64,000 bases of DNA from Candidatus Latescibacterota bacterium (lineage in GTDB: Bacteria; Latescibacterota; UBA2968): assembly GCA_965198115.1 (NCBI GenBank), contig OZ240241.1, positions 5,824,001 to 5,888,000 of the forward strand, given 5' to 3'. Shown here piece after piece: positions 487-54,907 of this stretch. The notes below the pieces were generated by a model, which made no database searches, had not been told where the DNA came from, and saw nothing but the letters and a program-made list of their open reading frames with translations. Each line of letters opens with the position of its first letter. Within the stretch, counting starts at the first letter, position 1. The position numbers were made by a program, and so were the translations under genes.

Positions 487-2415
487 TTGACCCGCCGTGC
501 CGTTCTGATCGGCCTGACGCTATCTGCGATCATCAGCGTCTGGCCGGCGTATTCGAGTATGATCGTTCGTTCCTCGCGGGCCGACTATGCTCACCTGTCG
601 GTCGCCTTCCTTGTCCCGTTTGTCATCCTCCTTCTGATGGACCTCGTCGCCAAGCGACGCGGGTCGGGTCTGTCATCGTCGGAGCTGATCACGATCTGTT
701 GTATCGGGGCGCTGGCCGCGAACACACAAGGCGAGTGGCTCTCCGGTTGTTTCCTCGGCACGATTTCCTCCCCGACGTATTTCGCGACACCCGAGAATCG
801 GTGGGACGAACTCCTGCTCGCGAGGCTCCCACCCTGGACCATCGTGAGCGACCCTGAAGCGACGACAGGGTTTTATGAGGGACTGCCGGACGGTCGGACC
901 ATCCCGTGGCGTGTTTGGGCCGTGCCGCTGCTGTGGTGGGGAAGTTTTTTCGGCGCTCTTCTGGTCGCCAATCTGTGTGTGCTGGTGATCCTCCGAAAGC
1001 AGTGGATGGAGAACGAGCGGCTTGCGTTTCCGATCGCGACGGCACTCCTACAAATGACAGGGGGAAGTCGTGCGACGTCTACATTTCAAACCTTGATCGC
1101 ATCGCGGCTATTCCGGGTCGAGTTCTTCACTGTGCTGGGTATCTTCGCGTGGAATACGACCACGTGGTTCGTGACTGCGATCCCACCTCTGCCCGTGATG
1201 ACGCGGCACCAGCTCTTCGTCGCCCGTGGGTTCCCCTCTGCGCTGATCGTGGTCCATCCGATGACGATGGCTTTCGCCTACTTCACCAAATCGGACGTGC
1301 TTCTCAGTTTGTGGGTGTTCCAGATCTTCTCATTCATTCAGGCGGGTCTCTTCAATCGTGTGGGTTTCAGCATTGGTGCGTCCGACCCGTGGGGATCTTT
1401 CGACGCGTCGACCGGGTGGCAGAGCTTTGGGGGAATGATCGTTTTCGTGGCGTGGGGGATGTGGATCGGACGGAGCCATTTGTCAGCCGTGATTCGGCAA
1501 GCCTGGACGGGGGAGCGGACGGTCGATGATTCCGGCGAGCTTCTGTCCTATCGAACGGCCGTCTGGCTTCTGGCAGGATCCGCCCTCTTTTTAGTGTTCT
1601 GGCTCAGGGGAACGGGGATGGACTGGGCGCCGCTGATGGCTTTCTGGTTCGGGACAGCCATCCTTTACATTGGTTTGGCGAGAATCATCGTGGAGAGCGG
1701 GCTGGTCATTCTGCGAGGGCCGATCACCGCCCAGGCATTCACGTGGCATCTCGTCGGTGTGGGCGGTGTCGGCCCGGCGAGTGCGGCCGTTCTGGGTCTG
1801 ACCTACACGTTCTTCTGCGATGGCAAGACGCTGGGAATGACCGCGCTCGCCCACGTGGCAAGGCTGAGTCAGGAGATGGAGATGCGTGGAAGGCGGCTGC
1901 TCGTGCCCGTGGTTCTTCTTGGCGCGGTCGTTGGGACAGTGGCCGTGGTCGGGTTCACACTTTACGAGGGTTATCACGCCTACGGCAGCTTCAACTTCGG
2001 GGTGGTTACCTTCACCGGATCGAACAACGGGCCCGTTGGCGTGTGGCAGATCAGCGCGAATCGGATTCAGCAGGGGACGTCCGGTACGGACTGGAACAGG
2101 CTGACGTTTCTGGGCATCGGCGGACTCTTTACGGCGCTCGTGCTCTACTTGCGGTATCTCATTCCGACGTTTCCCATTTCGCCCATCGGGTTCGCAATCT
2201 CCCCGTCGGGAGTGTTGCAAAGCAGCCTGCTGTCGATTCTTCTGGTGTGGGGCATCAAGACGATTCTGCTCAGAATTGGTGGGCTGGAACGCTACCGGCA
2301 GACGGCGCCCCTTTTTCTAGGGATGCTGATCGGACACGCGATGGGTCTTGCCCTGGGTGTGGTCGTCGACACGATCTGGTTCAACGGGAGTGGACATAGT
2401 ATAAACCGATGGTAG
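487..2415 (+). CDS. DUF6785/DUF6784-like polytopic membrane protein (OPT-like transporter), copy 1
   Basis: 642 aa, many TM helices, motifs LRKQWMENERLAFPIA, FTKSDVL, ARIIVESG, PISPIGF; TTG start. Confidence 0.8.
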   Translation: MTRRAVLIGLTLSAIISVWPAYSSMIVRSSRADYAHLSVAFLVPFVILLLMDLVAKRRGSGLSSSELITICCIGALAANTQGEWLSGCFLGTISSPTYFATPENRWDELLLARLPPWTIVSDPEATTGFYEGLPDGRTIPWRVWAVPLLWWGSFFGALLVANLCVLVILRKQWMENERLAFPIATALLQMTGGSRATSTFQTLIASRLFRVEFFTVLGIFAWNTTTWFVTAIPPLPVMTRHQLFVARGFPSALIVVHPMTMAFAYFTKSDVLLSLWVFQIFSFIQAGLFNRVGFSIGASDPWGSFDASTGWQSFGGMIVFVAWGMWIGRSHLSAVIRQAWTGERTVDDSGELLSYRTAVWLLAGSALFLVFWLRGTGMDWAPLMAFWFGTAILYIGLARIIVESGLVILRGPITAQAFTWHLVGVGGVGPASAAVLGLTYTFFCDGKTLGMTALAHVARLSQEMEMRGRRLLVPVVLLGAVVGTVAVVGFTLYEGYHAYGSFNFGVVTFTGSNNGPVGVWQISANRIQQGTSGTDWNRLTFLGIGGLFTALVLYLRYLIPTFPISPIGFAISPSGVLQSSLLSILLVWGIKTILLRIGGLERYRQTAPLFLGMLIGHAMGLALGVVVDTIWFNGSGHSINRW

Positions 2416-2518
2416 AGGATGCTTCCTCGCTGAGGAGGATTGACGGGTTTCGAGGATGTAGCAAGCTGAGGGGGCGACGGGGCGAGCGGGCGAGGCGATG
2501 GCTTCGCGTGAGCGTTTT

Positions 2519-2651
2519 GGTGGGACCGGCCTCCCGGCCGGGAAGAACCATCGGGCGGGTGATCGTGAGGTTTTTTGGGTAGGACCGGCCCTTCGACGGA
2601 GTTTATCCCGAGCGAAGTCGAGGGGCTCAGGATGTACCTCCCGGCCGGGAA
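2519..2651. repeat. REP-like palindromes (GGGACCGGCCTCCCGGCCGG); second copy interrupted by a CCTTCGAC...GCTCAGGA element
   Basis: Intact copy at 2521-2544; second copy at ~2579-2651 split between GGACCGGC and CCTCCCGGCCGG by a ~45-bp insert. Confidence 0.65.
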
Positions 2652-2717: not shown

Positions 2718-4640
2718 TTGACGAAGCGTGCACTCATTGTTGGGCTGGTAATGGCTGTCTGGGTCAGTGTCTGGCCGGCCTATTCGAGTATGATCGTGCG
2801 ATCCTCGCGGGCGGATTTCGCGCATCTGTCTGTCGCATTTCTGATTCCTTTCATCTGTCTCCTTGCTTTCAATCTGGTTCTGGGACGCCGTGGCAATGCT
2901 CTGCAGTCCTCGGAACTGCTCGCCATCTGTTGTATGGGGATGCTGGCTTCGAATATGCAGGGCGAGTGGCTGTCGGGCTACTTCCTGGGGACGATCTCCG
3001 CACCGACTTATTTTGCCACGCCGGAAAACCGTTGGGAGGAACTGCTTCTCGCGAACGTCCCACCGTGGTCGATTGTCGCGCATCTCAGGAGCACGACGGG
3101 GTTTTATGAAGGTCTCCTATCCGGGGACGTATTTCCGTGGTACTACTGGCTGCCCCCGCTTCTGTCGTGGGGCGGCCTCCTGGCAGCGATTCTGACGGCG
3201 AATCTCTGTACGATGGTCATCCTGCGGAAGCAGTGGATGGAACACGAGCGGCTGACGTTTCCGATCGCGATCGGGCTGCTAGAGTTGACGGGCACCTCGA
3301 GCGCCTCCAGGACGCTCGCCAGTCTGGTGCGGTCGAGGCTCTTCCAGATGGGGTTCCTGGTCGTGTTCGTTCTCTTCTGCTGGAACATCACGTCCTGGTT
3401 TTACCCCCTGCTTCCCCAGTTCCCGATTATGACCCGTCTCGATGTCTACGTCTGGCAGAGCCTGCCCCCGCTGTGGATCGTGCTTCATCCGATGTCGATG
3501 ACGTTCGCGTACTTCACCAAGTCGGATGTCCTGCTGAGCATCTGGGTGTTTCAGCTGTTGGCGTTTACCCAGGCGGCGATTTTCGATCGGATCGGCTTCA
3601 GCATCGGAGAGTCGGATCGCTGGTCTTCGCTGAAGCCCGCGATCGGCTGGCAAAGCTTCGGCGGGATGATTCTTTTCGTCGGGTGGGGGCTGTGGATGGC
3701 TCGGTCCCATCTGAAAGAAGTCTTCAAAAAGGCGTTGGGGAAGCCGTCGTCGGTCGACGATTCCGGCGAACTGCTTTCGTACCGAACTGCGGTCTGGCTG
3801 CTGCTGGGGTCGGTGGCGTTCGCGGTGTGCTTTCTCCGTGCGACGGGGATGGGTTGGGGACCCGTGCTGGCGTTCTGGTTCGCGTCGGCCATCCTCTATC
3901 TGGGGTTGGCGAGGATCATCGTGGAGAGCGGGCTCGTTTTCCTGAGGGGTCCCATTACGGCTCAGATCTTCGCGTGGAACCTGTTCGGCATCACGGGGAT
4001 GACCCCTGCGAGCGCGGCCTCGCTGACGCTGACCTACACGTTCTTCTGCGATGCGAAGACGTTCGGGATGACGACGTTCGCACACATCCCCCGACTGTCG
4101 GTGGCGATGACGCCGGAAAGACGTCGCCACGTCGCGCCGTCCGTTCTTCTGGCAGCACTCCTCGGGGCGGGCTCGGTGATTTCGTTCATTCTCTACAAGG
4201 GATTCTACACGATCGGCGCCTACAACTTCGGCGTCGTCAGTTTCAACGGATCGATCAACAGCGCGATCGGGCTCTGGGAGACGAGCGCGAGCCGGATCAT
4301 CGAAGGGACGGGTGGCACGGACTGGAAACGGCTCCAGTTTCTGGGAATCGGTGGCGCGGTGACCGGATGCCTTCTCTACCTCAGGTATCGCTTCCCCGGT
4401 TTTCCGATTCATCCGATCGGTTTCACGATCTCCTCTTCGGAAATTCTTCGTAGTAATCTGTTCTCGATCTTCACTGTCTGGCTCGTGAAGACCATCCTGT
4501 TGGGACTGGGCGGGTTGGAACGGTATCACCGCACGGTGCCGCTGTTCCTTGGAATGCTGATCGGACACCTCGCTGGGCTCGCGCTGGGCGTCGTGGTCGA
4601 CTTTTTCTGGTTCCACGGGGAGGGGCTATCCTTTGAATAG
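2718..4640 (+). CDS. DUF6785/DUF6784-like membrane protein, copy 2 (tandem paralog of copy 1)
   Basis: 640 aa, colinear with copy 1 (WPAYSSMIVRSSRAD, PTYFATPENRW, TYTFFCD); last codons probably +1 frameshifted. Confidence 0.8.
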   Translation: MTKRALIVGLVMAVWVSVWPAYSSMIVRSSRADFAHLSVAFLIPFICLLAFNLVLGRRGNALQSSELLAICCMGMLASNMQGEWLSGYFLGTISAPTYFATPENRWEELLLANVPPWSIVAHLRSTTGFYEGLLSGDVFPWYYWLPPLLSWGGLLAAILTANLCTMVILRKQWMEHERLTFPIAIGLLELTGTSSASRTLASLVRSRLFQMGFLVVFVLFCWNITSWFYPLLPQFPIMTRLDVYVWQSLPPLWIVLHPMSMTFAYFTKSDVLLSIWVFQLLAFTQAAIFDRIGFSIGESDRWSSLKPAIGWQSFGGMILFVGWGLWMARSHLKEVFKKALGKPSSVDDSGELLSYRTAVWLLLGSVAFAVCFLRATGMGWGPVLAFWFASAILYLGLARIIVESGLVFLRGPITAQIFAWNLFGITGMTPASAASLTLTYTFFCDAKTFGMTTFAHIPRLSVAMTPERRRHVAPSVLLAALLGAGSVISFILYKGFYTIGAYNFGVVSFNGSINSAIGLWETSASRIIEGTGGTDWKRLQFLGIGGAVTGCLLYLRYRFPGFPIHPIGFTISSSEILRSNLFSIFTVWLVKTILLGLGGLERYHRTVPLFLGMLIGHLAGLALGVVVDFFWFHGEGLSFE

Positions 4641-6276: not shown

Positions 6277-7272
6277 TTACTGGTTTCCCACTGCCTTGAT
6301 CAAGGCCTTGATGTAACCCGCTGTAAACGCCCTCTGCCGATGTCCCCACGGGCTGTCCTGTTCTGACTTTGGTACGTGATCGGGGCAGAAGATACCGTCG
6401 TAGCCAGACTCGCTGTAAACCCTCATCGCCTTCCACATATCGATGTCGCCGTCGTCGATGTAGGCTTCCTCGAACTTGAGAAACCCACCACGGATGTTGC
6501 GGAAGTGGACCATAAAGATCCGCTTACGTTCCGCGAAGTAGCAGATGACGTCGAAGACTTCATCGGCCGGATGCTCCAGCATCTCCGAAACCGTCCCCTG
6601 ACAGAAGTTGAGGCCGTGGTAGGGGCTGCTGGCGATGTCGATAAACCTCTTGAGGCCATCGACCCTGCCGAGGACACGGTTGACGCCCATCACACCGGTG
6701 TCGTGCGGGACGGGGACGTCGTGCTGGTGGCAGGCCATCCGGACTTTGGACGCCTCGGCGACAGGGATTACGCGCTCGAGGAAGTAGGTGATGCGCTCCC
6801 ACATCATATCCGCGGTGACGCGGCCGGCTGAGGTCATCGGCGCATCCTTGATCAGCTCGTAGTCAAAAGCCCGTACGCTGACGCCACCCCGCGCGGTCGT
6901 GCGTCCGGTCGTGAGCACGTCAAGCAAGGTCAGGTTGTATTTCAGGCAAGGGATGCCGACCTCACCCGCGATGCGCACGCTCTCGCAGATGTTGTCGATC
7001 TCACGATCCCGCTCGGGCGTACCGAGCATAATGTTGGGACTGTCGCCGGGCGTTTGGGGGTTCCACTTGCGAAGTGGGAGAGGCACGACTTCGAGCTTTA
7101 CGTCGTGGGATGAGACGAAGTCGTTGAAGCGACTGAGTGATTCGCGGGTCCAGCGAGACTCGCCTTCAGGGATGACGTCACTTGTTTTACGCCGACGATG
7201 ATGAACCCCGACCTGTTTCGCGAACTTCAGGTTGTCGGAGGTGATGTCACTCATCTGGAAGGCGACGTTCAT
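6277..7272 (-). CDS. Mannonate dehydratase (UxuA)-family protein
   Basis: MWERITYFLERVIPVAE, MACHQHD, GLNFCQGT, VHFRNI, PDHVP motifs; start taken at MNVAFQ because the longer ORF start lies inside a REP. Confidence 0.85.
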   Translation of the reverse strand: MNVAFQMSDITSDNLKFAKQVGVHHRRRKTSDVIPEGESRWTRESLSRFNDFVSSHDVKLEVVPLPLRKWNPQTPGDSPNIMLGTPERDREIDNICESVRIAGEVGIPCLKYNLTLLDVLTTGRTTARGGVSVRAFDYELIKDAPMTSAGRVTADMMWERITYFLERVIPVAEASKVRMACHQHDVPVPHDTGVMGVNRVLGRVDGLKRFIDIASSPYHGLNFCQGTVSEMLEHPADEVFDVICYFAERKRIFMVHFRNIRGGFLKFEEAYIDDGDIDMWKAMRVYSESGYDGIFCPDHVPKSEQDSPWGHRQRAFTAGYIKALIKAVGNQ

Positions 7273-7287
7273 AAAAACCTTGAACCA

Positions 7288-7312
7288 CCCTTCGACTACG
7301 CTCAGGACAAGC
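7288..7312. repeat. REP-like element CCCTTCGACTACGCTCAGGACAAG
   Basis: Near-identical copy at 15638; related copies at ~2590, 17554 and 48855. Confidence 0.7.
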
Positions 7313-7416
7313 TTCGACACGAAGACACAAAGAAAATCTGGGAGGGAAAACCATCCTGATCCCTCCGCATCGGGAACGAGAAGGAGGCTTGTCGCCCCTT
7401 CGTGTTCGCCAAAACC

Positions 7417-8883
7417 CTATCCTTCGCCAGGGCCTGACTCGCCAAGAGTTTCGGACCAGGACATCTCGGGGAGACGGGGCCACACGAATTGTTCGGGGGT
7501 GTCGACTTTCCCCGCCCACTCGACAATGACTTCCATTTCCTTGCGGCGTTCCTGGACGCGACGTGCGACGTGCCCGGGGTCCCAGCCATCGAGGACGCGG
7601 GCGCGCAGGTTGCCCAGGACCTGACGGCACGATGGGTCAGATGCCCTGTCGGATGTCTCGAGCGGATCCTCCGCCAGGTTGAACAGTTGAGGCGGCTGCT
7701 CGTGGTGATAGATCATCTTCCACTCGTCCTGACGGATCATCCGCTGCGTGATGCCTTCATAGAGGCAATATTCGGAGAATGTGACATTTTCCCAGTCGCC
7801 CGATCCCGTTTTCAGCAGGTCGAGTGCGCTCCGGCCCGGTGAGTGGGGAAGCGAAGGGGCGCCCATCGCGTCGAGCATCGTTGCGCCGAGGTCGAGAGCA
7901 GACATCACGTGGTCGCATGTCTGACCTTCGGGCAGCACGCCCGGCCACGATAGAATGGTCGGAACGCGTACGGACTCTTCGTAGAAGGTGCGCTTCATCC
8001 AGAGATCGTGGTCGCCGGCGTGGTCTCCGTGGTCTGAGCTGTAGACGATCAGGGTGTCGTCGGCGAGGCCGTTCGCTTCGAGTGCGGCAAGGATCTTACC
8101 GATCATCTGATCCATTTCGTCGGCGAGGGCCCAGTAGGCGGCTCGGCCTCTGAGGATCCACTCATCGGGCAGGGTCTGATCCAGCTTGCCGTGCTCTCGC
8201 CACCAACGCAGGAACGGGTGGAGGTCGTCGTCGAACGGTTCCCTAACACGCGGCATCGTGATGCTCTCGCGGTAGCGTTCGTATATGGGCCGTCGCGCGA
8301 GATACGGATGGTGGGGGAGCATAAAGCCGACGGATAGACTGAAGGGCTTCGTCATCAGTCCGGCACGCTTCTGTACGCCGAGACGATCGAAGAAGTTAAC
8401 GGTCGCGGCCGTGACGTCCTCGTCGTGGACCTGGTAGGCGCCCTGACCGGGACCCGCGGCTTCGACGCTGGCACGAAGGTTTCCTGGCGCGAGTCCGGAT
8501 CCACCCCAGTTGGATCCGTGGTCGCCCACAGGACGATCGACGTAGCCGTGGAGCTGATCGGGACCGTTCGAGTGCATACGTCCGATGAGGACGGGATCGT
8601 AGCCGGCTGCACCCATCGCGTTGGCGATGGTCGGGATGCCGGCGTCGAGGATCTGGTTGTTCGTCCAGACTTCGATGTCGGAGGGGAATCGCCCGGCCAG
8701 CATTGCCATTCTCGATGGGACGCACACCGGTGACGGGCAATAGACGTTCGTGCAGTTGATCCCGTTGGCGGCCAGTCGGTCGAGATTAGGCGTCTGAACG
8801 AGGGGATCGCCCGCGCATCCCATCACGAACGGGCTGTGCTGATCGGAATGGATGTAGAGCAGGTTGGGTCGGGTGTCGGGCAT
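7417..8883 (-). CDS. Sulfatase (choline-sulfatase-like, Cys-type)
   Basis: HSDQH, CVPSR (CxPxR), GRMH, YSSDHG, YEESVRVP motifs. Confidence 0.92.
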   Translation of the reverse strand: MPDTRPNLLYIHSDQHSPFVMGCAGDPLVQTPNLDRLAANGINCTNVYCPSPVCVPSRMAMLAGRFPSDIEVWTNNQILDAGIPTIANAMGAAGYDPVLIGRMHSNGPDQLHGYVDRPVGDHGSNWGGSGLAPGNLRASVEAAGPGQGAYQVHDEDVTAATVNFFDRLGVQKRAGLMTKPFSLSVGFMLPHHPYLARRPIYERYRESITMPRVREPFDDDLHPFLRWWREHGKLDQTLPDEWILRGRAAYWALADEMDQMIGKILAALEANGLADDTLIVYSSDHGDHAGDHDLWMKRTFYEESVRVPTILSWPGVLPEGQTCDHVMSALDLGATMLDAMGAPSLPHSPGRSALDLLKTGSGDWENVTFSEYCLYEGITQRMIRQDEWKMIYHHEQPPQLFNLAEDPLETSDRASDPSCRQVLGNLRARVLDGWDPGHVARRVQERRKEMEVIVEWAGKVDTPEQFVWPRLPEMSWSETLGESGPGEG

Positions 8884-9002: not shown

Positions 9003-9105
9003 TCCCCCGTGCTCTGCACGGGGGACCTGTGGGAAGGCGATCGAACGAAAACCTTTACCGGTGCAAGCGGCTAGAAACTTTTGTCCCCGTGCAGAGCACG
9101 GGGAC
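9003..9105. repeat. REP doublet CCCCGTGCTCTGCACGGGG / CCCCGTGCAGAGCACGGGG
   Basis: Two palindromes in inverted arrangement; same family at 20871-20895 and 43254-43374. Confidence 0.7.
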
Positions 9106-9153
9106 GAGCGAGGCGCTGTTGGATGTGGAGCGAGCGGAGCCCGCGGGAGATGA

Positions 9154-11958
9154 CTACAGGTCCAGCTGGTAGGAGAGCTTGAGGAGGACAGAACGGCTAC
9201 GCCGCGTCAGGTTGAAGCCGCCGCCGTTGATGGGGTCGTCCGTCGTGTCGTATCCGCTGTCGAAGACGAGGAAGATGTCGCTGCCCGGTCGGTATTCGTA
9301 GTTGAGGAGGAAATTGGCCGAGATGGTTTCGTCGTCGTTGTTCCACTGGGAGAACACTTTAACGAAGAAGTTGGTGGTGATGGAGTAAAGAAGTCGCGTG
9401 CCGAGGGTGTGGATGCTGAGATTCGCCTGGGGAAGCCGGATCCAGTTGCCCCTGTAGTTGACTTCGAACGACGCTCGACCGGTTGGCCTGAACGCACTTT
9501 GCGATCGGATCGAGTAGCGCCGACCCGTGTAGTAGGTTCCCGCTTCGAAGCTGAATCCAGGTCTGATCCATCTCTTTCCACTCGGTCGTGGACCGGTTCT
9601 GATCGTCGTGAATTTGTAGGTGCCGGGCGGAATGACGACATCGCTACGACGGTCGGATGGTGCGAACTCTTCCGTGACGACATCGTAAAACCGCGTCGCC
9701 TGGGACGACCACGCGTCGCCCGAGTTGAACAGTGTGTACCAGGATGCTTCGCCGGTCCAGTACTTCACGTCGTTCGCTCGGTCTGTCCATAGCTCCAACT
9801 CGGGGCCGATCGACATATAGCGGATGTTGCCGAACCCGGGTTTCGGGCGCCAGCGCAGGTAGACGTTGTAACGGCGGAATCCAGTCAGGTCGCCACGGCG
9901 GTTCACGAATCCAACGGCGGGCTCGAAGTTCTCCTCGACGTCGAGGTATTTCAATCGGGACCAGAATGTTCTGCCGCGATAATTCAGGAAAATGAACCGA
10001 GCATCACCCGTTCCCTCGATGTCCGAGTCCCAGGTTCGGGCCGCAAAGCCCTGGAAGTTCAATTTGCTCGTGGGTGAGTAGCTGAAGTCGAGACCGGCTG
10101 CCCGGTTGTAGGTGCTCCACCCGTCGATCTGTTTGTTGACCATAACGAAGCCGACGTTCGATCTCGCGAAGAGGTCGCGTCTGACGCGGAGAACGGAATA
10201 GTTCGTGCGCCGGACGTGGATGCTGTCACCGTCGTCTTCGAACGAGATGGGATCGGTCAGGACGTTGAGGGCGCCGATGCTCGTTCGACCTTCTTTTCCG
10301 GCCAGTTTCGTGCCGACCAGGATCGGGACCTGGCGTCTCTCCTCCAGACCGATCCGCCTCGAGTAGAAAAGAAGCGTGGGGGGCTCGGTCCCACTTCCTC
10401 TGAATCTGGCAGCCTCGCCAAACTCGAACAGGTTGGCTCCCTCGAGGAAGAATTCCCGTTTTTCTGGAAAGAAGAGACTGAATTGCGTGAGGTTGGTCCG
10501 TTCCTGATCACCCTCGACCTGGGCAAAGTCCGTTTTGTATGAAACATCGAGACCGATGTTGGAGGTGATGCCGTAGCGGAGGTCGAGTCCCGTGTCGAAG
10601 GAAGAGTTTTCTGCAGGATCGGTGACGCGGAAATCTTTTGATGTTCCAGGCAGAATGTAGGGCCTGATCTGGATGGGCCGCCTGGTCTTGACCTGTCGTA
10701 GACCCTTGAGCTCGCCGATGTCCATCATCAGGTAACGCTCGGTCGGTGAAGAGCTCTGTACGCCGACGACAAGCTGGGTGGCTTCGTTCTTCCTTGCGTT
10801 GAAACGGGAGAGATTGATGCCCCAGACCATATCGTCGCCTGGTTTGAATCGGAGCTGGCTGAAGGGGATCTGAACTTCGGCGGTCCAGCGATCCGCTTTT
10901 CGCTCCGTGCGACAGGTCCAGTTACAGTCCCAGTCTCGGTTGTAGGTGCGCCCTTCGTTGGAGAGCATATAGTCGGCCTGGGCCCCGAGGGGATTCACGA
11001 AGAAGAAAAACCCGTTCTGACGATCGTTGAACGTGTCGAGCAGGATCTGGACGTTGTCGTCGCTCGTCAGCTCCGAATCCCGGCGCATATTGTTCGCCAC
11101 CGACCCGTTCCCTTCAGGAATGGGGCAGTCGAAACCGAAGTAGATGTTCTCGTCGTCGTAGATGATCCGGGCTACGGTGTTCTCGGCGCTCGGAGCCCAG
11201 TAGTTCGGGTCGCGTTGGACGAATCCTTCGATCGGTCTGGCGGACGCCCACACGGGGTCGTCGAGCACGCCGTCGAGGTTCGGACCGTCTTCCACGCGTG
11301 CGGCGTGGACGGTCCGTCGGGCCTTTCGCCTGTTTCCGTTTCCGAGAGCGACGTGGATCAGGCGATCAGCAGGCTTGTAGGACGCTCGCTCGGATGAGGT
11401 GGTGCGTGCGACGATGACGTCATCGAGTTCTTTGATGACCTCGAGGTCCTCGCCGAACCCGTTTTCGCCCGATGTGGAGAGGCGACTCCAGAGCGGGACC
11501 GACCCGTTCATCCCTTCGACATAGACGAGGTCGCCGCTGACTTCACGAACTCTGCCCTCGATGTTGGAGACGGCTACTCGCTCTGGCGCGGCTTCCGAAT
11601 CACCGTTGGTCGATTCCGAGGCCAGACTGACGATCCACAGGCCCTCATGGGCGGACCGGATAAGGGCGACTTGCGACATCCCGGGTTCCAGATCGACGAT
11701 CTCACCGCGTGCGAATCGGTTTGAGCCATCGATGATCTCCACGATGCCTATTGGGGTGGCGCCACCATCGGCGGTGTATTCGGACAGGGGTCCTCCGACA
11801 ATGCGCAGACGATCTCCCTGTCGCACAGGTTTACCGTCCCGCAGGTCTATGAAGACTTTGCCGTCGTAGATTCGTACCACGTGCCCGCGAATCTCCTGGC
11901 CCGCGACCGGTGTAGACAGTGCAAAAATCAGGGTGATGATTGTGAGGGTTCTGTGCAT
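9154..11958 (-). CDS. Secreted/outer-membrane DUF5916-type protein with carbohydrate-binding family 9-like domain
   Basis: Signal peptide; LDGVLDDPVW, WTAEVQIPFSQLRF, TDFAQVEGD, FFPEKREFFLEG, YSRRIG; beta-barrel-like C-terminus LLKLSYQLDL. Confidence 0.8.
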   Translation of the reverse strand: MHRTLTIITLIFALSTPVAGQEIRGHVVRIYDGKVFIDLRDGKPVRQGDRLRIVGGPLSEYTADGGATPIGIVEIIDGSNRFARGEIVDLEPGMSQVALIRSAHEGLWIVSLASESTNGDSEAAPERVAVSNIEGRVREVSGDLVYVEGMNGSVPLWSRLSTSGENGFGEDLEVIKELDDVIVARTTSSERASYKPADRLIHVALGNGNRRKARRTVHAARVEDGPNLDGVLDDPVWASARPIEGFVQRDPNYWAPSAENTVARIIYDDENIYFGFDCPIPEGNGSVANNMRRDSELTSDDNVQILLDTFNDRQNGFFFFVNPLGAQADYMLSNEGRTYNRDWDCNWTCRTERKADRWTAEVQIPFSQLRFKPGDDMVWGINLSRFNARKNEATQLVVGVQSSSPTERYLMMDIGELKGLRQVKTRRPIQIRPYILPGTSKDFRVTDPAENSSFDTGLDLRYGITSNIGLDVSYKTDFAQVEGDQERTNLTQFSLFFPEKREFFLEGANLFEFGEAARFRGSGTEPPTLLFYSRRIGLEERRQVPILVGTKLAGKEGRTSIGALNVLTDPISFEDDGDSIHVRRTNYSVLRVRRDLFARSNVGFVMVNKQIDGWSTYNRAAGLDFSYSPTSKLNFQGFAARTWDSDIEGTGDARFIFLNYRGRTFWSRLKYLDVEENFEPAVGFVNRRGDLTGFRRYNVYLRWRPKPGFGNIRYMSIGPELELWTDRANDVKYWTGEASWYTLFNSGDAWSSQATRFYDVVTEEFAPSDRRSDVVIPPGTYKFTTIRTGPRPSGKRWIRPGFSFEAGTYYTGRRYSIRSQSAFRPTGRASFEVNYRGNWIRLPQANLSIHTLGTRLLYSITTNFFVKVFSQWNNDDETISANFLLNYEYRPGSDIFLVFDSGYDTTDDPINGGGFNLTRRSRSVLLKLSYQLDL

Positions 11959-15532: not shown

Positions 15533-15637
15533 TTGTAGGCTAACCTTGACAAGGTTGGTCAGTCGCGGCATTAAGGGGGCTGTGAACGGGGAGGTCAAGC
15601 CTGAACTGGACGGCCTCGACAATGGGCGAGTTCTCGA

Positions 15638-19714: not shown

Positions 19715-19824
19715 TGTCATCCCGGTGGGCTTCTGAGCCGGGATCTGATTTCCCGCGCCTACACGGTTCGACAGTGGTGCGCGGAGTCAAATGGACCCCG
19801 GCTCAACACACTACCGGGGTGACA
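19715..19824. repeat. REP doublet TGTCATCCCGG...CCGGGATC...GGACCCCGG...CCGGGGTGACA
   Basis: Same family at 41536-41638, 48728-48907 and 50161-50252. Confidence 0.75.
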
Positions 19825-19973
19825 TTATTTTTGCCGTAGCGTGTTGTTCAAACTCTCGTCCAACACCATCACCAACCGATCATCCTGAGTGACGTTCTCG
19901 GTCACGGCATTGCGTGAGCATTCACCGAACGCAGTCACACGTTGTATCGAAGGGCGAGTGGTGGGCTGTTGCG

Positions 19974-21701: not shown

Positions 21702-21767
21702 TGATTTTTGTCCTTTCGCGACCTTTCCTTGGCGTCCACCTGCGTTTCAAAACCAACCGGAGAAAAC

Positions 21768-25333: not shown

Positions 25334-25384
25334 TTGGGCTTGGCCCTTCGTGTGCGGAGGCCCAGGCTCCCCGGACGACCGACG

Positions 25385-41497: not shown

Positions 41498-41535
41498 CGA
41501 ATAGCCCAATCTTTAGAAATTCTATGGAAGAACAA

Positions 41536-41638
41536 TGTCATCCCGGCAGGCTTCTGAGCCGGGATCCATTTTCGAGCGCGCTCGATTGACGAGGACGCTC
41601 ATACGATGGACCCCGGCCTAAGAGCGTACGGGGTGACA
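41536..41638. repeat. REP doublet (TGTCATCCCGG family)
   Basis: TGTCATCCCGGCAGGCTTCTGAGCCGGGATCCA...TGGACCCCGG...GGGGTGACA. Confidence 0.75.
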
Positions 41639-47497: not shown

Positions 47498-48676
47498 TTG
47501 AAAATCGAATCCATCGACTTCCAGATCCTCGAGGGCGAGCCGGTAGAGCCAGAGTGGCGACCCTACCGTACGATGATCGAATATCCCGATTCGCACCGGT
47601 TCGGCCACAAGCCGTTCGAGGGCGAAGGGATCAAGCTGGGGGCGAGACCAACCTATACGTGCGTGCTACGCATCCGGACCGACGAGAATCTCGAGACGTG
47701 TGAGATCTTTGGCTCGCGCTTCAGCCGTGAACAGATCGAGTGGGAAGCGCAGACGTTCAAGCTGCAGTGGGGGCCGGAGTTGGTCGGCGCCAACGCGTTG
47801 GACCGGGAGTACATGTGTCACAAGATGTGGATGGCCCGTCGCTATTTCCACATGCCCTCGCAGCTTCCCCTTACCTTAATCGATCAGCTCCTGTGGGACC
47901 TGGCCGGTCTCAAGGCACAGCTGCCAGTGCACAAGCTGCTCGGAGGGTTCAGGGATCGCGTGCCTGCCTACCTCACGGAAGCCAGCCGAAACCACGAACA
48001 GACGCTCGAGACGGCGCAGAAGGCGAAGGAGCTGGGCTACAAAGGGTTCAAAGATCATTCGATGCTGGGGGTCGAAGCGAACCTGGCACTCGCCAAAGAG
48101 CTGAGAGATCTGGTGGGTGACGAGATGGTGCTGCTGCACGATCCCGTGCAGCAGTACTCGGTGGAAGATGCGATCAAGGTGGGGCGTCGCCTGTGGGATC
48201 TCGACTACCTCTGGATCGAGGAACCGCTCCAGGAAGAGGACATTATCGGATTGAAGCGACTTTCCGACGCAATTGAACTTCCCGTTTTGGCGTTGGAATC
48301 GAACCTCGGACATCCATACGTGGCCGTTCCCTATCTGCAAAATGATGCGATCGATATGGTGCGGAACGTCGCGATGGGCATTACGGGTCAGATGAAGCTG
48401 GCCAATTTGGCGGAAATGTTCGGGAAGCCTGCCCACGGCGGGAACGTGCACGTGGTTGCAGCCGTTCGAAACGATGATTGGTACGAACACCACGCGAGGA
48501 ATGCGTTCAAACGCGGTGACAACAGCCCGGGAAGGCCCCTGTCGTTGGCCGTAGGAGGTCTGATTCGAGATACGTTCGAAGTCCGCGACGGCTATATGTA
48601 CGTTCCGCAGACCCCAGGTCTCGGCCGAGAGATCGATTGGGAACAGATTGAAGCGAGAACGATTAATACAATTTAG
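47498..48676 (+). CDS. Mandelate racemase/muconate lactonizing enzyme family, tandem copy A
   Basis: WDLAG, LLGGFR, FKDH, HDP, WIEEP, PGLG; TTG start. Confidence 0.88.
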   Translation: MKIESIDFQILEGEPVEPEWRPYRTMIEYPDSHRFGHKPFEGEGIKLGARPTYTCVLRIRTDENLETCEIFGSRFSREQIEWEAQTFKLQWGPELVGANALDREYMCHKMWMARRYFHMPSQLPLTLIDQLLWDLAGLKAQLPVHKLLGGFRDRVPAYLTEASRNHEQTLETAQKAKELGYKGFKDHSMLGVEANLALAKELRDLVGDEMVLLHDPVQQYSVEDAIKVGRRLWDLDYLWIEEPLQEEDIIGLKRLSDAIELPVLALESNLGHPYVAVPYLQNDAIDMVRNVAMGITGQMKLANLAEMFGKPAHGGNVHVVAAVRNDDWYEHHARNAFKRGDNSPGRPLSLAVGGLIRDTFEVRDGYMYVPQTPGLGREIDWEQIEARTINTI

Positions 48677-48727
48677 AATTAGGGAATCAGTGAATTAGGG
48701 AATCAGTGAATTAGGAAATTGAGGGAA
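48677..48727 (+). repeat. Short tandem repeat (AATTAGGGAATCAGTG x2 plus degenerate units)
   Basis: Similar GGGAATTA/GGAATCA octamer runs follow stop codons at ~19684, 50120, 51461 and 54928. Confidence 0.7.
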
Positions 48728-48907
48728 TGTCATCCCGGTACGCTTCTTAGAGAGCCTGTCAGAGCCTGCTTCGAGCGAAGCGAGAAGAACGTATGTGAGG
48801 GGGGCCCATTTTGACTTTCGCAATGATGGGAGAATGGATCCCCTTCTACAAGCTCCCTTCGGCAGGCTCAGGACAGCCAGGCGGCTCCCAACAACGCCGG
48901 GATGACA
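48728..48907. repeat. REP doublet carrying two internal insertions
   Basis: Aligns with the shorter 50161-50252 copy apart from inserts at ~48749-48798 and ~48842-48882. Confidence 0.7.
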
Positions 48908-48941
48908 ACGCTCTTTCAATGGCGCTACTCATAGGTCACCC

Positions 48942-50120
48942 ATGAAAATCGAATCCATCGACTTCCAGATCCTAGAGGGCGAGCCGGTAGAGCCCGAGTG
49001 GCGGCCCTACCGAACGATGATCGAATATCCCGATTCGCACCGGTTTGGACACAAACCGTTCGAGGGCGAAGGGATCAAGCTGGAGGCGAGACCAACATAT
49101 ACTTGCGTGCTGCGCATCCGAACAGACGAGAATATCGAGACGTGTGGAATCTTCGGCTCACGCTTCAGCCGTGAACAGATAGAGTGGGAAGCGCAGACAT
49201 TCAAGCTGCAGTGGGAGCCGGAGTTGGTCGGCGCCAATGCGTTGGACCGTGAGTACATGTGGCACAAGATGTGGATGGCCCGCCGCTACTTTCACATGCC
49301 GGTGATCCTCCCTCTCTCCACAATTGATCAGCTGCTCTGGGACCTGGCCGGTCTCAAGGCTCAGCTGCCAGTGCACAAACTGCTTGGTGGGTTCCGAGAT
49401 CGTGTGCCGGCCTACCTGACAGAGGCCAGCCGCAATCACGAGCAGACACTCGAGACGGCGCAGAAAGCGAAAGAGCTGGGTTACAAAGGGTTCAAAGATC
49501 ACTCGATGCTGGGGGTCGAAGCGAATTTAGCGCTTGCCAAGGATCTGAGAGATCTGGTGGGTGACGAGATGGTGCTGATGCACGATCCTGTGCAGCAGTA
49601 TTCGGTGGAAGATGCCATCAAGGTGGGTCGTCGTCTGTGGGATCTGGATTACCTCTGGATCGAGGAGCCACTGCAGGAGGTCGACATCATCGGGCTCAAG
49701 CGGCTCTCCGACGCGATTGAACTTCCCGTCTTGGCGCTGGAATCGAACCTCGGGCATCCTTACGTGGCCGTGCCCTATCTGCAGGACGACGCAATCGACA
49801 TGGTGCGGAACGTGGCGATGGGCATCACGGGTCAGTTCAAGCTGGCCAATCTGGCGGAAATGTTCGGGAAACCGGCTCACGGCGGGAACGTGCACGTGGT
49901 TGCCGCCGTCCGGAACGACGATTGGTACGAACATCACGCGAGGAACGCCTTCAAGCGCGGCGACAACGAACCGCGCCGCCCGCTTTCGTTGGCCGAGGGA
50001 GGCTTGATCCGGGAGACGTTCGAAGTACGCGACGGGTATATGTACGTTCCGCAGACACCGGGTCTCGGCCGAGAGATCGATTGGGAACAGATCGAAGCGA
50101 GAACGATCAACACAATCTGA
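48942..50120 (+). CDS. Mandelate racemase-family protein, tandem copy B
   Basis: 392 aa, nearly identical to copy A. Confidence 0.9.
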   Translation: MKIESIDFQILEGEPVEPEWRPYRTMIEYPDSHRFGHKPFEGEGIKLEARPTYTCVLRIRTDENIETCGIFGSRFSREQIEWEAQTFKLQWEPELVGANALDREYMWHKMWMARRYFHMPVILPLSTIDQLLWDLAGLKAQLPVHKLLGGFRDRVPAYLTEASRNHEQTLETAQKAKELGYKGFKDHSMLGVEANLALAKDLRDLVGDEMVLMHDPVQQYSVEDAIKVGRRLWDLDYLWIEEPLQEVDIIGLKRLSDAIELPVLALESNLGHPYVAVPYLQDDAIDMVRNVAMGITGQFKLANLAEMFGKPAHGGNVHVVAAVRNDDWYEHHARNAFKRGDNEPRRPLSLAEGGLIRETFEVRDGYMYVPQTPGLGREIDWEQIEARTINTI

Positions 50121-50160
50121 AATCAGGGAATCAGGAAATGAGGGAATTGAAGGCGAGAGA

Positions 50161-50252
50161 TGTCACCCCGGCATGTTTCTTGGCCGGGGCCCATTTTGAC
50201 TTTCGCAAAGATCGGAGAATAGATCCCGGCTCAAAACAATGCCGGGATGACA
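50161..50252. repeat. REP doublet (TGTCAYCCCGG family)
   Basis: TGTCACCCCGGC...GCCGGGGCCCA...AGATCCCGGC...GCCGGGATGACA. Confidence 0.75.
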
Positions 50253-50289
50253 CCGCTCTTTCATAGGCGCTGTAAATCGTAGGTAACCC

Positions 50290-51462
50290 ATGAAAATTGA
50301 ATCCATCGAGTTCCAGATCCTCGAAGGCGATCCGGTCGAACCCGAATGGCGTCCACTGCGAACGATGCGGGAGTATCCTGGGTCCCATAAAGTCCGGTTC
50401 GGTCATCGGCTCTACAGCGAAGAGGGTATCCGACTGGACCCACGACTGGCCTACACGTGTCTCATGCGGATCAGGACAGACGCGAATATCGAGACGATCG
50501 GCTCCTTCGACACCGGATGGGGAAAAGAGGATCTCGAGTGGGGTGCGCGGACGTTCAAAGTTCAGTGGGAGCCGGAGCTGGTCGGCTCCGATGCGCTTAA
50601 CCGTGAGTATATGTGGCACAAGATGTGGATGGCGCGTCGGTACTTTCACATGCATGCATCAACCGCGCCGCTGGTCTTGATCGATACGCTGCTCTGGGAC
50701 CTGGCGGGGCTGCACGCGAAGCTACCCGTCCACAAACTGCTCGGGGGGTTCAGGGATCGGGTGCCCGCGTACCTGACAGAGACGGGCATTCCCTACGAGG
50801 ACACGTTGAAGTCAGCCCAACGTGCGGTCGACGAAGGCTACCACGGCTTCAAGGATCACTCGATGCTGGGTGTCGAGACGAATCTCGCGCTGGCGAAGGA
50901 TATCCGCGACCTGGTCGGGGGTGACCTGGTGTTGATGCACGATCCCGTGCAGCAGTACTCGGTCGACGATGCGATCAAGGTGTCCCGCAGGCTCGAAGAA
51001 CTGGACTACATCTGGATCGAAGAGCCGCTGCAGGAGTTCGACATCAACGGGTTGAAACGATTGTCGGATGCGGTGGATCTGCCAGTGATGGCGCTCGAAT
51101 CGATTCAGGGGAACCCGTATCTCGCGACGCCCTACCTGGCGGCGAGTGCGATCGATATTGTGCGGCAAACCGGATTGGGCATCACGGGGCAGATGAAGCT
51201 GGCCAACCTGGCCGAGATGTTCGGAATGAATGCCCACGGCGGGCACCCACACGTCGTGGCTGCGATCCGCAATGACGACTGGTGGGAAGTGAGCGCGTGG
51301 CCGGCAACAGGGTCGGACCGTTCAATGGGAGGGTCGTTCCCGGGGTTGATCGGAGGAATGATGGAGATCCGGGACGGGTATATGTATGTTTCACAGGATC
51401 CTGGGCTGGGACGGTCGATCGATTGGGATCAGATCGAAGCCAGGACCATTATGAAAATATGA
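50290..51462 (+). CDS. Mandelate racemase-family protein, tandem copy C
   Basis: 390 aa, same motifs, more diverged than A and B. Confidence 0.9.
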   Translation: MKIESIEFQILEGDPVEPEWRPLRTMREYPGSHKVRFGHRLYSEEGIRLDPRLAYTCLMRIRTDANIETIGSFDTGWGKEDLEWGARTFKVQWEPELVGSDALNREYMWHKMWMARRYFHMHASTAPLVLIDTLLWDLAGLHAKLPVHKLLGGFRDRVPAYLTETGIPYEDTLKSAQRAVDEGYHGFKDHSMLGVETNLALAKDIRDLVGGDLVLMHDPVQQYSVDDAIKVSRRLEELDYIWIEEPLQEFDINGLKRLSDAVDLPVMALESIQGNPYLATPYLAASAIDIVRQTGLGITGQMKLANLAEMFGMNAHGGHPHVVAAIRNDDWWEVSAWPATGSDRSMGGSFPGLIGGMMEIRDGYMYVSQDPGLGRSIDWDQIEARTIMKI

Positions 51463-51625
51463 AATTAGGGGCTTAGGAAATCGGCGGATCGATCGTCGTT
51501 GAATGCGTTCTTGTCTGTACGGTTAGATCACGATTGGGTGGTCAGCCGGCTTCACCCGGCTTCGCTACCCTAGCGTGGGGCTTCAGCCCCACCCACCAAG
51601 GGGCCCACGGCCACCGAGGCGAACA

Positions 51626-52828
51626 ATGGTGACAAGAGAAAACATCATTCGTAACCCACTGCTCGAAGACATCGACGATCCGATCCTCGCTCGTGCGCTT
51701 ATCGGGTCGACCGAAGAGCTAGCGACCGCGACGCGTCCCGCCTTTCTCGAGAATCCGCACTCACCTGTCACGTGGGGGCCGGAGGATTGGGAGACGCTGG
51801 AAGCCTCACGTGAAGACCTTTTCGACTGGTCATCTGTCGAGGCGCAGTTCGACTTCGACACGTTCCTGCGAGACGGATACGCGGTCCTCCGCGGCGTGAT
51901 GACGCCGGCTACGGTGAATGCGTGGACCGAAGCCGTTCAGTTCGGGCAACGGATCAACGATGCGCTGTTGAGAGCCGACTGGAATGAGATCGATTGGCTC
52001 GCCCTCGGTCGGAATCCTCCAGCGAAGTTTCTTTCGCAAGAGGACATAGAGCGTGCCACCGCGGGCAGCCAGAAGGCACCACAGTCGACTGACGAAGCGG
52101 GTGTCTTGACGCTTCGGATCAATAGTGTGTTCTCAGAGTACTTCCCATCCGGGCACGTCCCGTATCTGATGAACGTGCTGACGCACCCTCAGATGCTGGC
52201 GCTGGAACGTGCGTGCCTCGAGACAGAGGAGATCTATTTCGATCATAACCAGCTTCTGACGCGCCCACCAGGGTATCTCGGCGGAACCTGGCACAGCCAC
52301 CGCATCGGCGCCGGCTACGACGATGGTGTCGTCAGCCTGGAGGCCTATAGATCTCAGCCGAACGCGATTCTGACACTGTGCTATCCTCAAGGGTTCGAGA
52401 GTGAGAACGACGGTGGGCTGAAGATCGTGCGAGGTAGCCATCTATTCCGCGAACCGGACACGTGTCGCGCGCCGAGTGATGAAGAGTTGGCGGCGGGATG
52501 GATGAAAGAGCATCTACACCCCGTAACATCCGAACCATTGGAAATCGAGCACCTTTCGCTGGAACCTGGATCGGTTGTCTGCTGTCTGTCTCACGCGGCG
52601 CACGCAGTATCCCCAAAGGGGACGGATAAATCGACGCGCTGGTGCTCTTTGTACTGCTACAAGAAAGCGGATGTGAGTACTGGGCTCGTCCAACCTCCGA
52701 GCGCGATTCCTCCCGTGTGGGCGATGAAGGCCCAGCGAGGAGAGTTGCCCGGGGTACTCACCAAGTTGCTTCGCCACAGCTTCGATCGCGAGTTGACGGG
52801 CGGTCGAAAACTATTCGACGATGCCTGA
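51626..52828 (+). CDS. Phytanoyl-CoA dioxygenase-like protein (HxH motif)
   Basis: FLRDGYAVLRG, WHSH, GGLKIVRGSH, HAAHAV, RWCSL. Confidence 0.75.
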   Translation: MVTRENIIRNPLLEDIDDPILARALIGSTEELATATRPAFLENPHSPVTWGPEDWETLEASREDLFDWSSVEAQFDFDTFLRDGYAVLRGVMTPATVNAWTEAVQFGQRINDALLRADWNEIDWLALGRNPPAKFLSQEDIERATAGSQKAPQSTDEAGVLTLRINSVFSEYFPSGHVPYLMNVLTHPQMLALERACLETEEIYFDHNQLLTRPPGYLGGTWHSHRIGAGYDDGVVSLEAYRSQPNAILTLCYPQGFESENDGGLKIVRGSHLFREPDTCRAPSDEELAAGWMKEHLHPVTSEPLEIEHLSLEPGSVVCCLSHAAHAVSPKGTDKSTRWCSLYCYKKADVSTGLVQPPSAIPPVWAMKAQRGELPGVLTKLLRHSFDRELTGGRKLFDDA

Positions 52829-52897
52829 GACCCACACCTTTCCAATCCGCAAGCGTCGAGCATCTGCTCCGACTGCCACGGTCTGAACGGCCCATCT

Positions 52898-54907
52898 TTG
52901 TCTATCGCTCCTGAACGATCTCCCTCCACGGCTGACGACGCCTCCCGAGCCGAAGGCACATCCTTCATCACGAAGCGAGCGTTGATCGTTGGCGTCATCC
53001 TCGCCACTCTCATGCCGGTGTGGCCGACGTATACCAGTTTCATCCTCCACTCTACGCGAGCCGATCACTCGCATCTCTCGCTGGCGATGCTCATCCCGTT
53101 CGTGATTCTCTTGATCATCAACACGTTTCTCGAACGTTGGGGGATGGGATTCACCCCGACCGAGCTGTTGACGATCTGCTGCATCGGAATGGTGGCCGCC
53201 GTGATGCAGGGCGAGTTCTTCCTCGTCTGGTTCATGGGTATGCTGACGATGCCGTCTTACTTCGCGTCGCCGGAGAACCGATTCGAAGAACTGCTCCTTC
53301 CACATATGCCGGAATGGACGACGATCATCAACCGCTCGGTCGTTCAGGGGTTCTATGAAGGTATTGTCCCGGGAAGTCCCTTCCCCTGGCCCGAATGGGG
53401 ATCCGTGCTCTTCTGGTGGGGGGCGTTCATCGGGGCGGTGATGACGGTGAATCTGTGTCTCAGCGTCCTGCTCAGAAAGCAGTGGATGGAACACGAACGG
53501 TTGTCGTTTCCGGTCGCGTCCTTTCTGTTGGAGTTGACGGGCGTATCGGGGACGAGCGGGACGCTGATGACGCTCGTAAGGAACAAACTATTCAAAGCGG
53601 GCTTCCTGATTACCTTCGCCATCATCGCCTACAACGTCTCGACCTGGTTCACGATCGCGATGCCGATGATGCCCTTCCTGGCAGGCCGATACGGAAGGCA
53701 CGTGCTGCCCGTCGCTCCGGGTTTTCCCAGCCTGGTGACCACGTTCGTTCTTCTCACATTCTGCCTCGGCTATTTTACGAAGCTGGAAGTCTTGTTCAGC
53801 CTCTGGTTCTTCCATCTGGTTCAGATCGTGCAGGCGGGCATTTTCAACCGTATCGGTGTGGATATGGGAACGGTCGACCCCTGGAGCTCGAGTCATCCGG
53901 CGATCGGTTGGGAGACGTTCGGGGGGATGACCGTCTTTGTGTTGTGGGGATTCTGGATCGCCCGGCCCCACTTCCACGCTGTTCTCCGCAAGGCGTTTAT
54001 GAACGATGAGAAGGTTGACGACTCCGAGGAGCTCATGTCCTACCGGACAACGGTCATCCTGCTCATCGGTTGTGCGCTTTTCATCGTCTTTTGGTTGTCG
54101 CGCGCGGGTATGGACGTGTTGCCGATTCTGGGCTGGTGTTTCGCGATGCTGATTCTTCACGTCGGGATGTCACGGATCGTGGTCGAGAGTGGATTGGTCT
54201 ACCTGCGCGTCCCGATTACCGCGCAGGCGTTTACGTGGCACGCTTTCGGCATCGGGAATCTGGGCCCGGCAAGTGCGACGGTTCTGACGCTGACCAATAC
54301 CCTCGTGAGCGACGGAAAGACCGTTGGGATGACACAGATGGCGCACGTGCCGCGGCTGGGGATGGCGATGGCACGCAAGAGCCGAAAAGCCCTGGCGCCG
54401 GCTGTGCTGATTGGGACGATGCTGGGTGCGTCGGCCGCGATCGGGTTCTTGCTCTACCAGGGGTATTACGGGCCGGGGGCCTCCAATTTCGGAACGGGAA
54501 CCTTCAAGGGTGGGGGTGGCGCCGTGCTGTTCAGCAACATCGCGGTGGGACGCATCCAGGACGGGACGACTGCGACGGACTGGGATCGGATCGCCTGGAT
54601 GTTCGTTGGGGGTGGGTTTACGGCTGGACTCTACTATCTGCGGTATCGATTCACGGGGTTTCCACTCCATCCCATCGGATTCACGATCTGTGGGATGGTG
54701 GAGATGCAGGACAATGCGTTCAGCCTGTTTCTGATGTGGTTCGTGAAACTCATCATCATCAAGGTAGGCGGGTTGGAGCGATACCGGGAGTACACGCCCT
54801 TCTTCATCGGGATGATCATGGGCTACCTCGCGGGAATTACACTAGGCGTTACCGCAGACTTCTTCTTTTTCCCGGGAGAAGGCCACGAGATTCATTGTGA
54901 TCCCTGA
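52898..54907 (+). CDS. DUF6785/DUF6784-like membrane protein, copy 5
   Basis: 669 aa, closest to copy 3; ends GEGHEIHCDP. Confidence 0.8.
   Translation: MSIAPERSPSTADDASRAEGTSFITKRALIVGVILATLMPVWPTYTSFILHSTRADHSHLSLAMLIPFVILLIINTFLERWGMGFTPTELLTICCIGMVAAVMQGEFFLVWFMGMLTMPSYFASPENRFEELLLPHMPEWTTIINRSVVQGFYEGIVPGSPFPWPEWGSVLFWWGAFIGAVMTVNLCLSVLLRKQWMEHERLSFPVASFLLELTGVSGTSGTLMTLVRNKLFKAGFLITFAIIAYNVSTWFTIAMPMMPFLAGRYGRHVLPVAPGFPSLVTTFVLLTFCLGYFTKLEVLFSLWFFHLVQIVQAGIFNRIGVDMGTVDPWSSSHPAIGWETFGGMTVFVLWGFWIARPHFHAVLRKAFMNDEKVDDSEELMSYRTTVILLIGCALFIVFWLSRAGMDVLPILGWCFAMLILHVGMSRIVVESGLVYLRVPITAQAFTWHAFGIGNLGPASATVLTLTNTLVSDGKTVGMTQMAHVPRLGMAMARKSRKALAPAVLIGTMLGASAAIGFLLYQGYYGPGASNFGTGTFKGGGGAVLFSNIAVGRIQDGTTATDWDRIAWMFVGGGFTAGLYYLRYRFTGFPLHPIGFTICGMVEMQDNAFSLFLMWFVKLIIIKVGGLERYREYTPFFIGMIMGYLAGITLGVTADFFFFPGEGHEIHCDP

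Follow-up and report, generated by a model that had tools for sequence, protein, structure and literature searches.

A DUF6785/DUF6784 membrane protein family with a predicted OPT/YSL-type fold, expanded in the genome of a Candidatus Latescibacterota bacterium

The window analysed here is a stretch of 64,000 nucleotides from the genome of a Candidatus Latescibacterota bacterium (assembly GCA_965198115.1, contig OZ240241.1, positions 5,824,001 to 5,888,000), and the subject of the analysis is five paralogous loci, for which a first-pass annotation had proposed a family of OPT-like transporters. All five loci were found to be members of the Pfam families DUF6785 (PF20581) and DUF6784 (PF20580), two parts of one protein, with scores far above the cut-offs: the open copies 1, 2, 3 and 5 reach 298–322 bits for PF20581 and 62–75 bits for PF20580, and the pieces of copy 4 pass as well. 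Copy 1 (487..2415, plus strand) is intact and encodes a protein of 642 aa with a predicted OPT/YSL fold. Copy 2 (2718..4640, plus strand; 640 aa) is its tandem sister, the final residues of which are frame-shifted near position 4625. Copies 3 (17672..19678, plus strand; 668 aa from the likely start, 683 aa for the open reading frame from 17627) and 5 (52898..54907, plus strand; 669 aa) belong to the clade with the motif HEIHCDP. Copy 4 (24904..22969, minus strand) is a recent pseudogene spread over three frames, its reading frame being interrupted near 23885 and 23064. Pairwise identity is 48–74% between the four open copies and 46–58% between the pieces of copy 4 and the open copies. The first description, five paralogs of 640–670 aa, was correct as to the number of loci, only four of which are open.

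The breaks of copy 4 are present, gap-free and identical, in contigs of runs X1, X2 and X3, the first two of which are possibly from the source sample of the window, and the third from a different sample of the same study; long-read error as the source of the frameshifts was thereby ruled out. In a related strain (X4), one extra letter is found at the place of each break, and the copy-4 ortholog in the same-genus genome G001 is open and encodes 647 aa. Since the pieces of copy 4 still show a dN/dS of 0.08 against G001, the loss of this copy was recent. Copy 2 terminates in GEGLSFE, its G001 ortholog in GHPLNRW, and one X1 contig matches the window exactly; the terminus NR(A)W, originally ascribed to copies 1, 2 and 4, is thus absent from copy 2.

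The motifs ERLxFP, ARIxVESG and WFxGxGH, first described as common to all copies, are present in a looser form, with ERLAYP instead of ERLxFP in copy 3 and the variants SRIVVESG and FFPGEGH in copy 5. The described division into TFFCD and NTIVAD copies likewise held in part: both motifs exist, TFFCD in copies 1 and 2 only (AFHCD in copy 4) and NTIVAD in copy 3 only (NTLVSD in copy 5). A quick tree was built from five G001 orthologs and all but one of the 31 intact copies of this genome; in it, copies 1 and 2 are sisters (support 98), copies 3 and 5 form a clade with three further copies of the genome (support 100), and the copy-4 ortholog groups with L002, a copy located elsewhere in the genome (support 99). 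In place of two subfamilies, with copy 4 joined to copies 1 and 2, three lineages are represented in the window, all of them inside one clade of 24 rows.

The expansion, at first counted as five copies, comprises 49 loci on the single 8.43-Mb contig of the genome, 31 of them in a single frame. Of all 64-kb blocks the window is the richest, with five loci compared with three in the next block and 0.37 expected from the genome rate; the Poisson probability of this local excess, which the tandem pair exaggerates, is 4e-5 per window and about 0.006 over 132 windows. All 30 relatives contain at least 20 family matches each, the scored matches being limited to 34, and of 140 Latescibacterota genomes surveyed, 130 contain DUF6784; the one family in which it was not matched is f10 (G038–G047; 0/10 genomes). 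For the family profile, 7,020 clusters at 50% identity were obtained. The entire block of the window is present in the same order in G001, where all five copies are open, and dN/dS against the G001 orthologs is 0.06–0.09 across the copies (0.08 for copy 1, at 83% identity, and 0.09 for copy 2), that is, the copies are under purifying selection.

The AlphaFold model of copy 1, based on an alignment of 146 sequences, has a pLDDT of 96.2 and a pTM of 0.95. Foldseek comparison of this model with 350,542 chains gave two matches at E ≤ 0.001, both to barley Yellow Stripe 1 (HvYS1; PDB 7wsr/7wst), with E values of 7e-8 and 1e-7 and TM-scores of 0.58–0.64; the TM-scores of the remaining listed matches do not exceed 0.18. 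In the VIA comparison with YS1, a Z score of 22.1 and a root-mean-square deviation of 3.9 were obtained for 533/600 aligned residues, spanning residues 1–637 and covering both halves of the protein, versus Z 4.6 for the runner-up fold. Both the core and the scaffold of the YS1-type fold are present in the predicted model. Comparison of the family profile with nine classical bacterial OPTs from the same phylum, one of which aligns to YS1 at E 1e-14, gave an hhalign probability of 95% and an E value of 3.9e-8 over 428 columns. In this alignment, RKQWxxxERLxFP pairs with PLRRxLIxxExLxYPEG of the OPTs, the closing glycine being missing, and through L076 the ERLxFP region pairs with LVYPSG of YS1, which bears out the resemblance to an OPT/YSL motif noticed at first pass.

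Full-length classical OPTs are present in nine of the 140 phylum genomes, in one copy each, versus 130 genomes with DUF6784. Members scoring for both families are rare: one of 22 scanned DUF6785 proteins, L087, exceeds the Pfam OPT cut-off, and one archaeal cluster of the Atlas is annotated as DUF6785 (95%) and OPT (11%). An Atlas search with both DUFs removed gave scores of at most 0.80 (‘peptide transporter’, OPT 31%), which serve as leads only. The window copies have no PF03169 match and are not classical members of that family, but the full-length fold match and the profile homology indicate, as far as a predicted model allows, that they are of common descent with the OPT/YSL superfamily and that their fold is that of a transporter. 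The family is thus interpreted as a divergent, heavily expanded branch with the OPT/YSL fold, the members of which are probably solute importers. Classical prokaryotic OPTs resemble it in the profile homology, in similar length, in single-component architecture and in the dual-scoring members, and differ from it in their match to PF03169. HvYS1 shares with it the predicted fold of the whole chain, an LxYP-type motif after the third helix and, by topology, broken helices where YS1 binds its substrate; it differs in that identity is only 11–15%, and in that the family, which is bacterial and represented by dozens of paralogs per genome, displays neither the proton-coupling Asp triad nor any sign of phytosiderophore biology.

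YS1 is described (PMC9691689) as a proton symporter, the core of which consists of two inverted units, each combining a hairpin with a broken helix, and is proposed to move like an elevator; its pocket is formed by the TM1–H1 loop, the unwound TM2 and TM9 (K482), with D446, D490 and D494 put forward as proton sites. Matching elements in the copy-1 model are the loop 28–38, the helix break 81–82, the loop 405–414 and the break 442–450. The copies probably act as stand-alone, ion-driven importers of the inner membrane, supplying small charged organic solutes to the surrounding breakdown enzymes; by analogy with YS1, the solute would be bound by the core of two inverted units, and the core would slide elevator-like against the scaffold. 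The putative pocket of copy 1 would be composed of the hairpin loop 28–38 (SRADxxH) and the helix break 79–89 (QGE), and, in the second half, of the hairpin loop 403–414 (ESGL) and the break 438–450 (D-G/A-K). The window copies have a common charged pocket signature, R/D/H/E/D/K. The TFFCD/NTIVAD motif and the next lysine lie near K482 of YS1 by topology and chained alignment, in an approximate register. Candidate counterparts of the proton-coupling residues, with their frequency in the 146 sequences, are E403 (63%), D445 (51%), H/N456 (84%) and K/R459 (90%), of which E403, D445 and H456 may be involved in coupling.

Identity of the pocket segments is 0.91–0.98 within ortholog pairs, compared with 0.76–0.91 elsewhere in the protein, and 0.62–0.87 among the window paralogs, compared with 0.47–0.74 in the remainder; across the 146-sequence family, the same segments are more variable than average (entropy 2.5–3.0 vs. 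2.44). The proposal of a diversified family is tempered by the window copies, in which the predicted pocket is better conserved than other parts of the protein. The pattern as a whole fits substrates that are specific to each subfamily and, in the clade of the window, a cargo that is related and charged. With the pocket kept in each ortholog group and differing between deep subfamilies, the 49 copies could cover many substrates.

Copies 2 and 3 are separated by a block of genes that includes, on the minus strand, a UxuA-like dehydratase (6277..7320), a sulfatase (7417..8883), a protein with a CBM9-like domain and DUF5916 (9154..11958), a class III aminotransferase (12255..13778) and a heparinase II/III-like lyase (13700..15622, weak matches below the cut-off), and, on the plus strand directly upstream of copy 3, an unassigned protein with weak sialidase similarity (15758..17452; E 0.003). 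Copy 5 closes a co-directional run on the plus strand, preceded by three tandem dehydratase-like genes of the mandelate-racemase/enolase superfamily (47498..51462) and, directly upstream, a PhyH-family dioxygenase (51575..52828). The first two of the tandem genes have 85–93% DNA identity, and G001 has two genes at this place. An APC amino-acid permease fused to TrkA-N/TrkA-C is encoded at 27236–29269 (minus strand); for this gene and for those at 21708–22964 and 24959–26938, the syntenic block of G001 yielded no counterpart. Several families of short palindromic repeats, which we take to be like repetitive extragenic palindromic (REP) elements, lie between genes at 2581–2641, 9081–9117, 19715–19843, 41522–41579, 48675–48926 and 50116–50271.

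The CBM9–DUF5916 protein, which is syntenic in G001, has a signal-peptide-like start, and the model of its residues 137–934 is a large beta-barrel (pLDDT 86.8), predicted to lie in the outer membrane. Foldseek matched this model to CBM9 (target TM-score 0.74–0.77) and to generic large outer-membrane barrels, namely LptD and TonB receptors (TM-score about 0.3). The barrel is a candidate entry route for the solutes. The genome contains four such barrels, one located about 6 kb and another about 14 kb from a copy; a fixed pairing of barrel and copy was ruled out, as a barrel is near only one of 42 sites. In a crude hydropathy test, most neighbouring hydrolases and lyases, among them the sulfatase and the lyase of the window, have no N-terminal hydrophobic stretch or clear signal peptide, which fits processing of the solutes after import.

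The neighbourhoods of the copies were compared with genomic expectation at 42 sites, with families defined by BLAST clusters; of 295 listed neighbour proteins, 148 and about 50 more were scanned by profile, and the remainder were labelled by BLAST clustering only. Catabolic families represent 27/84 adjoining genes (13.1 expected), 69/252 genes within three positions (39.4 expected, p 0.001) and 111/420 within five (65.6 expected). Among the controls, catabolic genes adjoin MFS transporters in 9/62 cases, TonB receptors in 1/36 and ABC importers in 1/18; within three genes of MFS transporters the count is 34/186, and the copies differ from MFS at Fisher p 0.019 for adjacent genes and 0.030 within three genes. 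The neighbours of the copies are thus not random. Enrichment was detected for PhyH (24 vs. 11.3 expected, p 0.003), DHDPS-like enzymes, PepX (3 vs. 0.57) and a GHL10-like family, and was absent for sulfatases (5 vs. 3.8), glycosidase-like propellers (1 vs. 1.2), enolase-type enzymes and UxuA. The proposed service to sulfatases and glycosidases in particular is not borne out, most of the signal being due to PhyH. By BLAST clustering, the genome contains about 277 PhyH-type, 133 GFO, 104 enolase-superfamily and 95 sulfatase open reading frames.

No ABC ATPase or solute-binding protein was detected by Pfam among 51 scanned open reading frames of the window (176 of at least 100 aa are listed), in agreement with the first-pass annotation. 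Genome-wide, none of the 42 sites has an ABC ATPase among its three nearest genes on either side (2.2 expected), and one has an ABC-import permease within 10 kb. A link with TonB-dependent receptors was ruled out, since none was found within 10 kb of the 42 sites (1.8 expected). In terms of matches, which are not gene counts, the genome holds 15 ABC-import permeases, three DctM, 20 TonB receptors and 44 MFS transporters; the three DctM genes are far from the window, and SusD is absent from the genome. Two pairs of TonB-receptor matches (109293/1139538 and 7500149/8407169) have the same scores and the same frame lengths, suggesting recent duplications.

Polysaccharide utilisation loci of Bacteroidota are defined by SusC/SusD. 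The window block resembles them in that transport genes are interspersed with genes for lyase, sulfatase and sugar-acid enzymes, and in that it includes one barrel, predicted to lie in the outer membrane, that bears a carbohydrate-binding-like domain. It differs in the absence of SusD and of TonB receptors near the copies, in the mostly cytoplasmic-looking enzymes, in the rarity of a barrel near the copies, and in gene order: the cluster of carbohydrate-active enzymes is syntenic in G001 and reshuffled in other genera. Of the originally proposed utilisation locus without SusCD, ABC or TRAP parts, the absence of these parts from the window was confirmed, whereas the neighbours change between genera; the copies are better read as a set of importers kept across the lineage than as a locus type of fixed composition.

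Several observations weigh against the interpretation as an importer family with the OPT/YSL fold. PF03169 (cut-off 25.8 bits) gave no match at E 1 to the four open copies and ten other copies of the genome, nor has this model a match anywhere in the genome. PDB searches by sequence, for which one copy and two profiles served as queries, returned nothing meaningful, an internal repeat was not detected by sequence (hhalign probability 0.5 between the N- and C-terminal halves), and the Asp triad D446/D490/D494 of YS1 was not seen in the chained, gappy alignment. The neighbour test rests on gene calls made for this analysis and on an enzyme set picked after the neighbours had been seen. The enzymes cluster with each other at an equal rate (0.30), so that the copies may simply occupy accessory regions; co-orientation of copies and neighbours is 66/98, against a background of 77%. 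Finally, some members of the family adjoin a giant M28/FtsX protein or are fused to it.

This last association could mean that the proteins do not import solutes and instead serve, as accessory membrane subunits or as exporters, in an envelope machine centred on the giant MacB-like protein. In locus L015, a copy lies 54 bases upstream of a gene for a 1524-aa M28/FtsX protein (the two together in the region 5033–11589 of L015; genome 3049132–3055691), an arrangement conserved in L040; a family gene stands beside a related giant-gene module in six more of the 34 fetched loci, and P0250 is a 2120-aa fusion of FtsX and DUF6785. Such a role may hold for the FtsX-linked subfamily itself. As an account of the family it is hardly probable, since the L015 copy is outside the 24-row clade holding every window copy, ABC ATPases are missing near the copies, and the genome has just two giant genes, the second of which (in the region 2009499–2016340 of the genome) is followed by a different OPT-like gene, the relatives of which score weakly for PF03169. 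Still less credence can be given to neutral duplication in a decaying genome rich in insertion sequences (IS), with the neighbours as mere background. The genome, 8.4 Mb in size compared with 5.6 Mb in G001, contains more than 800 transposase open reading frames or fragments (ISL3, Mutator, DDE_3, ISAZ013 and others) and looks like the product of recent IS expansion with gene decay; 15/46 near-full family loci are split, and gene order around the copies is reshuffled between genera. For comparison, 19/81 sulfatase, 10/93 enolase-type and 9/120 GFO loci are split, and over 14 gene families the split fraction is 0–40% of loci. However, the break rate of the family (0.21 per kb) is on a par with the rates of sulfatases (0.20) and SDRs (0.19), although it is above that of MR_MLE (0.10) and GFO (0.08), and neutral duplication is largely refuted by the low dN/dS of the syntenic, open G001 orthologs and by retention in the phylum, including all 30 relatives.

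As regards cargo, import of metal chelates, as in YS1, would provide iron for the numerous PhyH-type Fe(II) dioxygenases, and PhyH is the clearest enriched neighbour; the only solved structural relative is an importer of Fe-phytosiderophore. This is improbable, however: YS1 is the sole solved member of the superfamily, TonB-dependent receptors are missing around the copies, and a set of 49 copies, the pockets of which differ between subfamilies, is more in keeping with many organic substrates than with a single metal. Peptides or N-acyl amino-acid derivatives, carried by the same fold and mechanism as in fungal and plant OPTs, are a more serious, if still unlikely, main cargo. Peptidases and amide hydrolases are common neighbours, with M24 and M14 in the window and M81, PepX, S9, CN-hydrolase, deacylase and formamidase elsewhere, and genome context pointed to peptide transport for prokaryotic OPTs in the accessible portion of an earlier survey (PMC3061005). 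On the other hand, sugar-acid-type neighbours represent 6/30 for the clade of copies 3 and 5 versus 15/222 for other copies (p 0.026, post-hoc), and UxuA flanks relatives of this clade at 6/7 loci in two other genera, the kin not being independent. Since the clade leans to sugar-acid enzymes, its likeliest cargo, tentatively assigned, consists of sugar acids or acidic fragments of sugars; peptide cargo overlaps with the interpretation as solute importers and may hold for other subfamilies.

In a full-text literature search, covering few subscription papers and no supplements, no paper naming DUF6785, DUF6784, PF20581 or PF20580 was found, nor one naming DUF5916; among listed titles, Latescibacter or archaeal names combined with OPT terms gave no paper on the family. 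Pfam describes no function for DUF6785/DUF6784, and NCBIfam contains no model of the family. The available parts of PMC12993501 and PMC7081726 contain nothing on the family, and the term ‘OPT’ does not occur in the accessible part of a Latescibacteria transporter list (PMC4454575). As far as the available text of the sources goes, prokaryotic OPT homologues were widespread and biochemically uncharacterised in 2011 (PMC3061005), folate and glutathione are among OPT cargo (PMC13642987), and two OPT subfamilies, PT and YSL, are recognised, found with PF03169 (bioRxiv 10.64898/2026.08.27.747422). A bolder and rather doubtful extension would make the family a third great OPT branch and the main organic-solute importer of Latescibacterota, in which peptides and metal chelates have been replaced as cargo by sugar acids and by sugar fragments that are sulfated or unsaturated. 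In the window, the family would then complete a utilisation system that does without SusCD and combines an outer-membrane barrel, tipped with CBM9, with a lyase, a sulfatase and dehydratases of the cytoplasm.

The analysis provides a predicted fold and a likely function for a large unannotated family, with dozens of copies per genome, in a widespread uncultured phylum. Its paralogs, with one scaffold, different pockets and neighbours that suggest substrates, make the specificity and coupling of OPT proteins directly testable. Given 49 loci of this family in the genome, against 15 ABC-import permease, three DctM and 44 MFS matches, metabolic reconstructions probably miss much of the uptake capacity of these bacteria.

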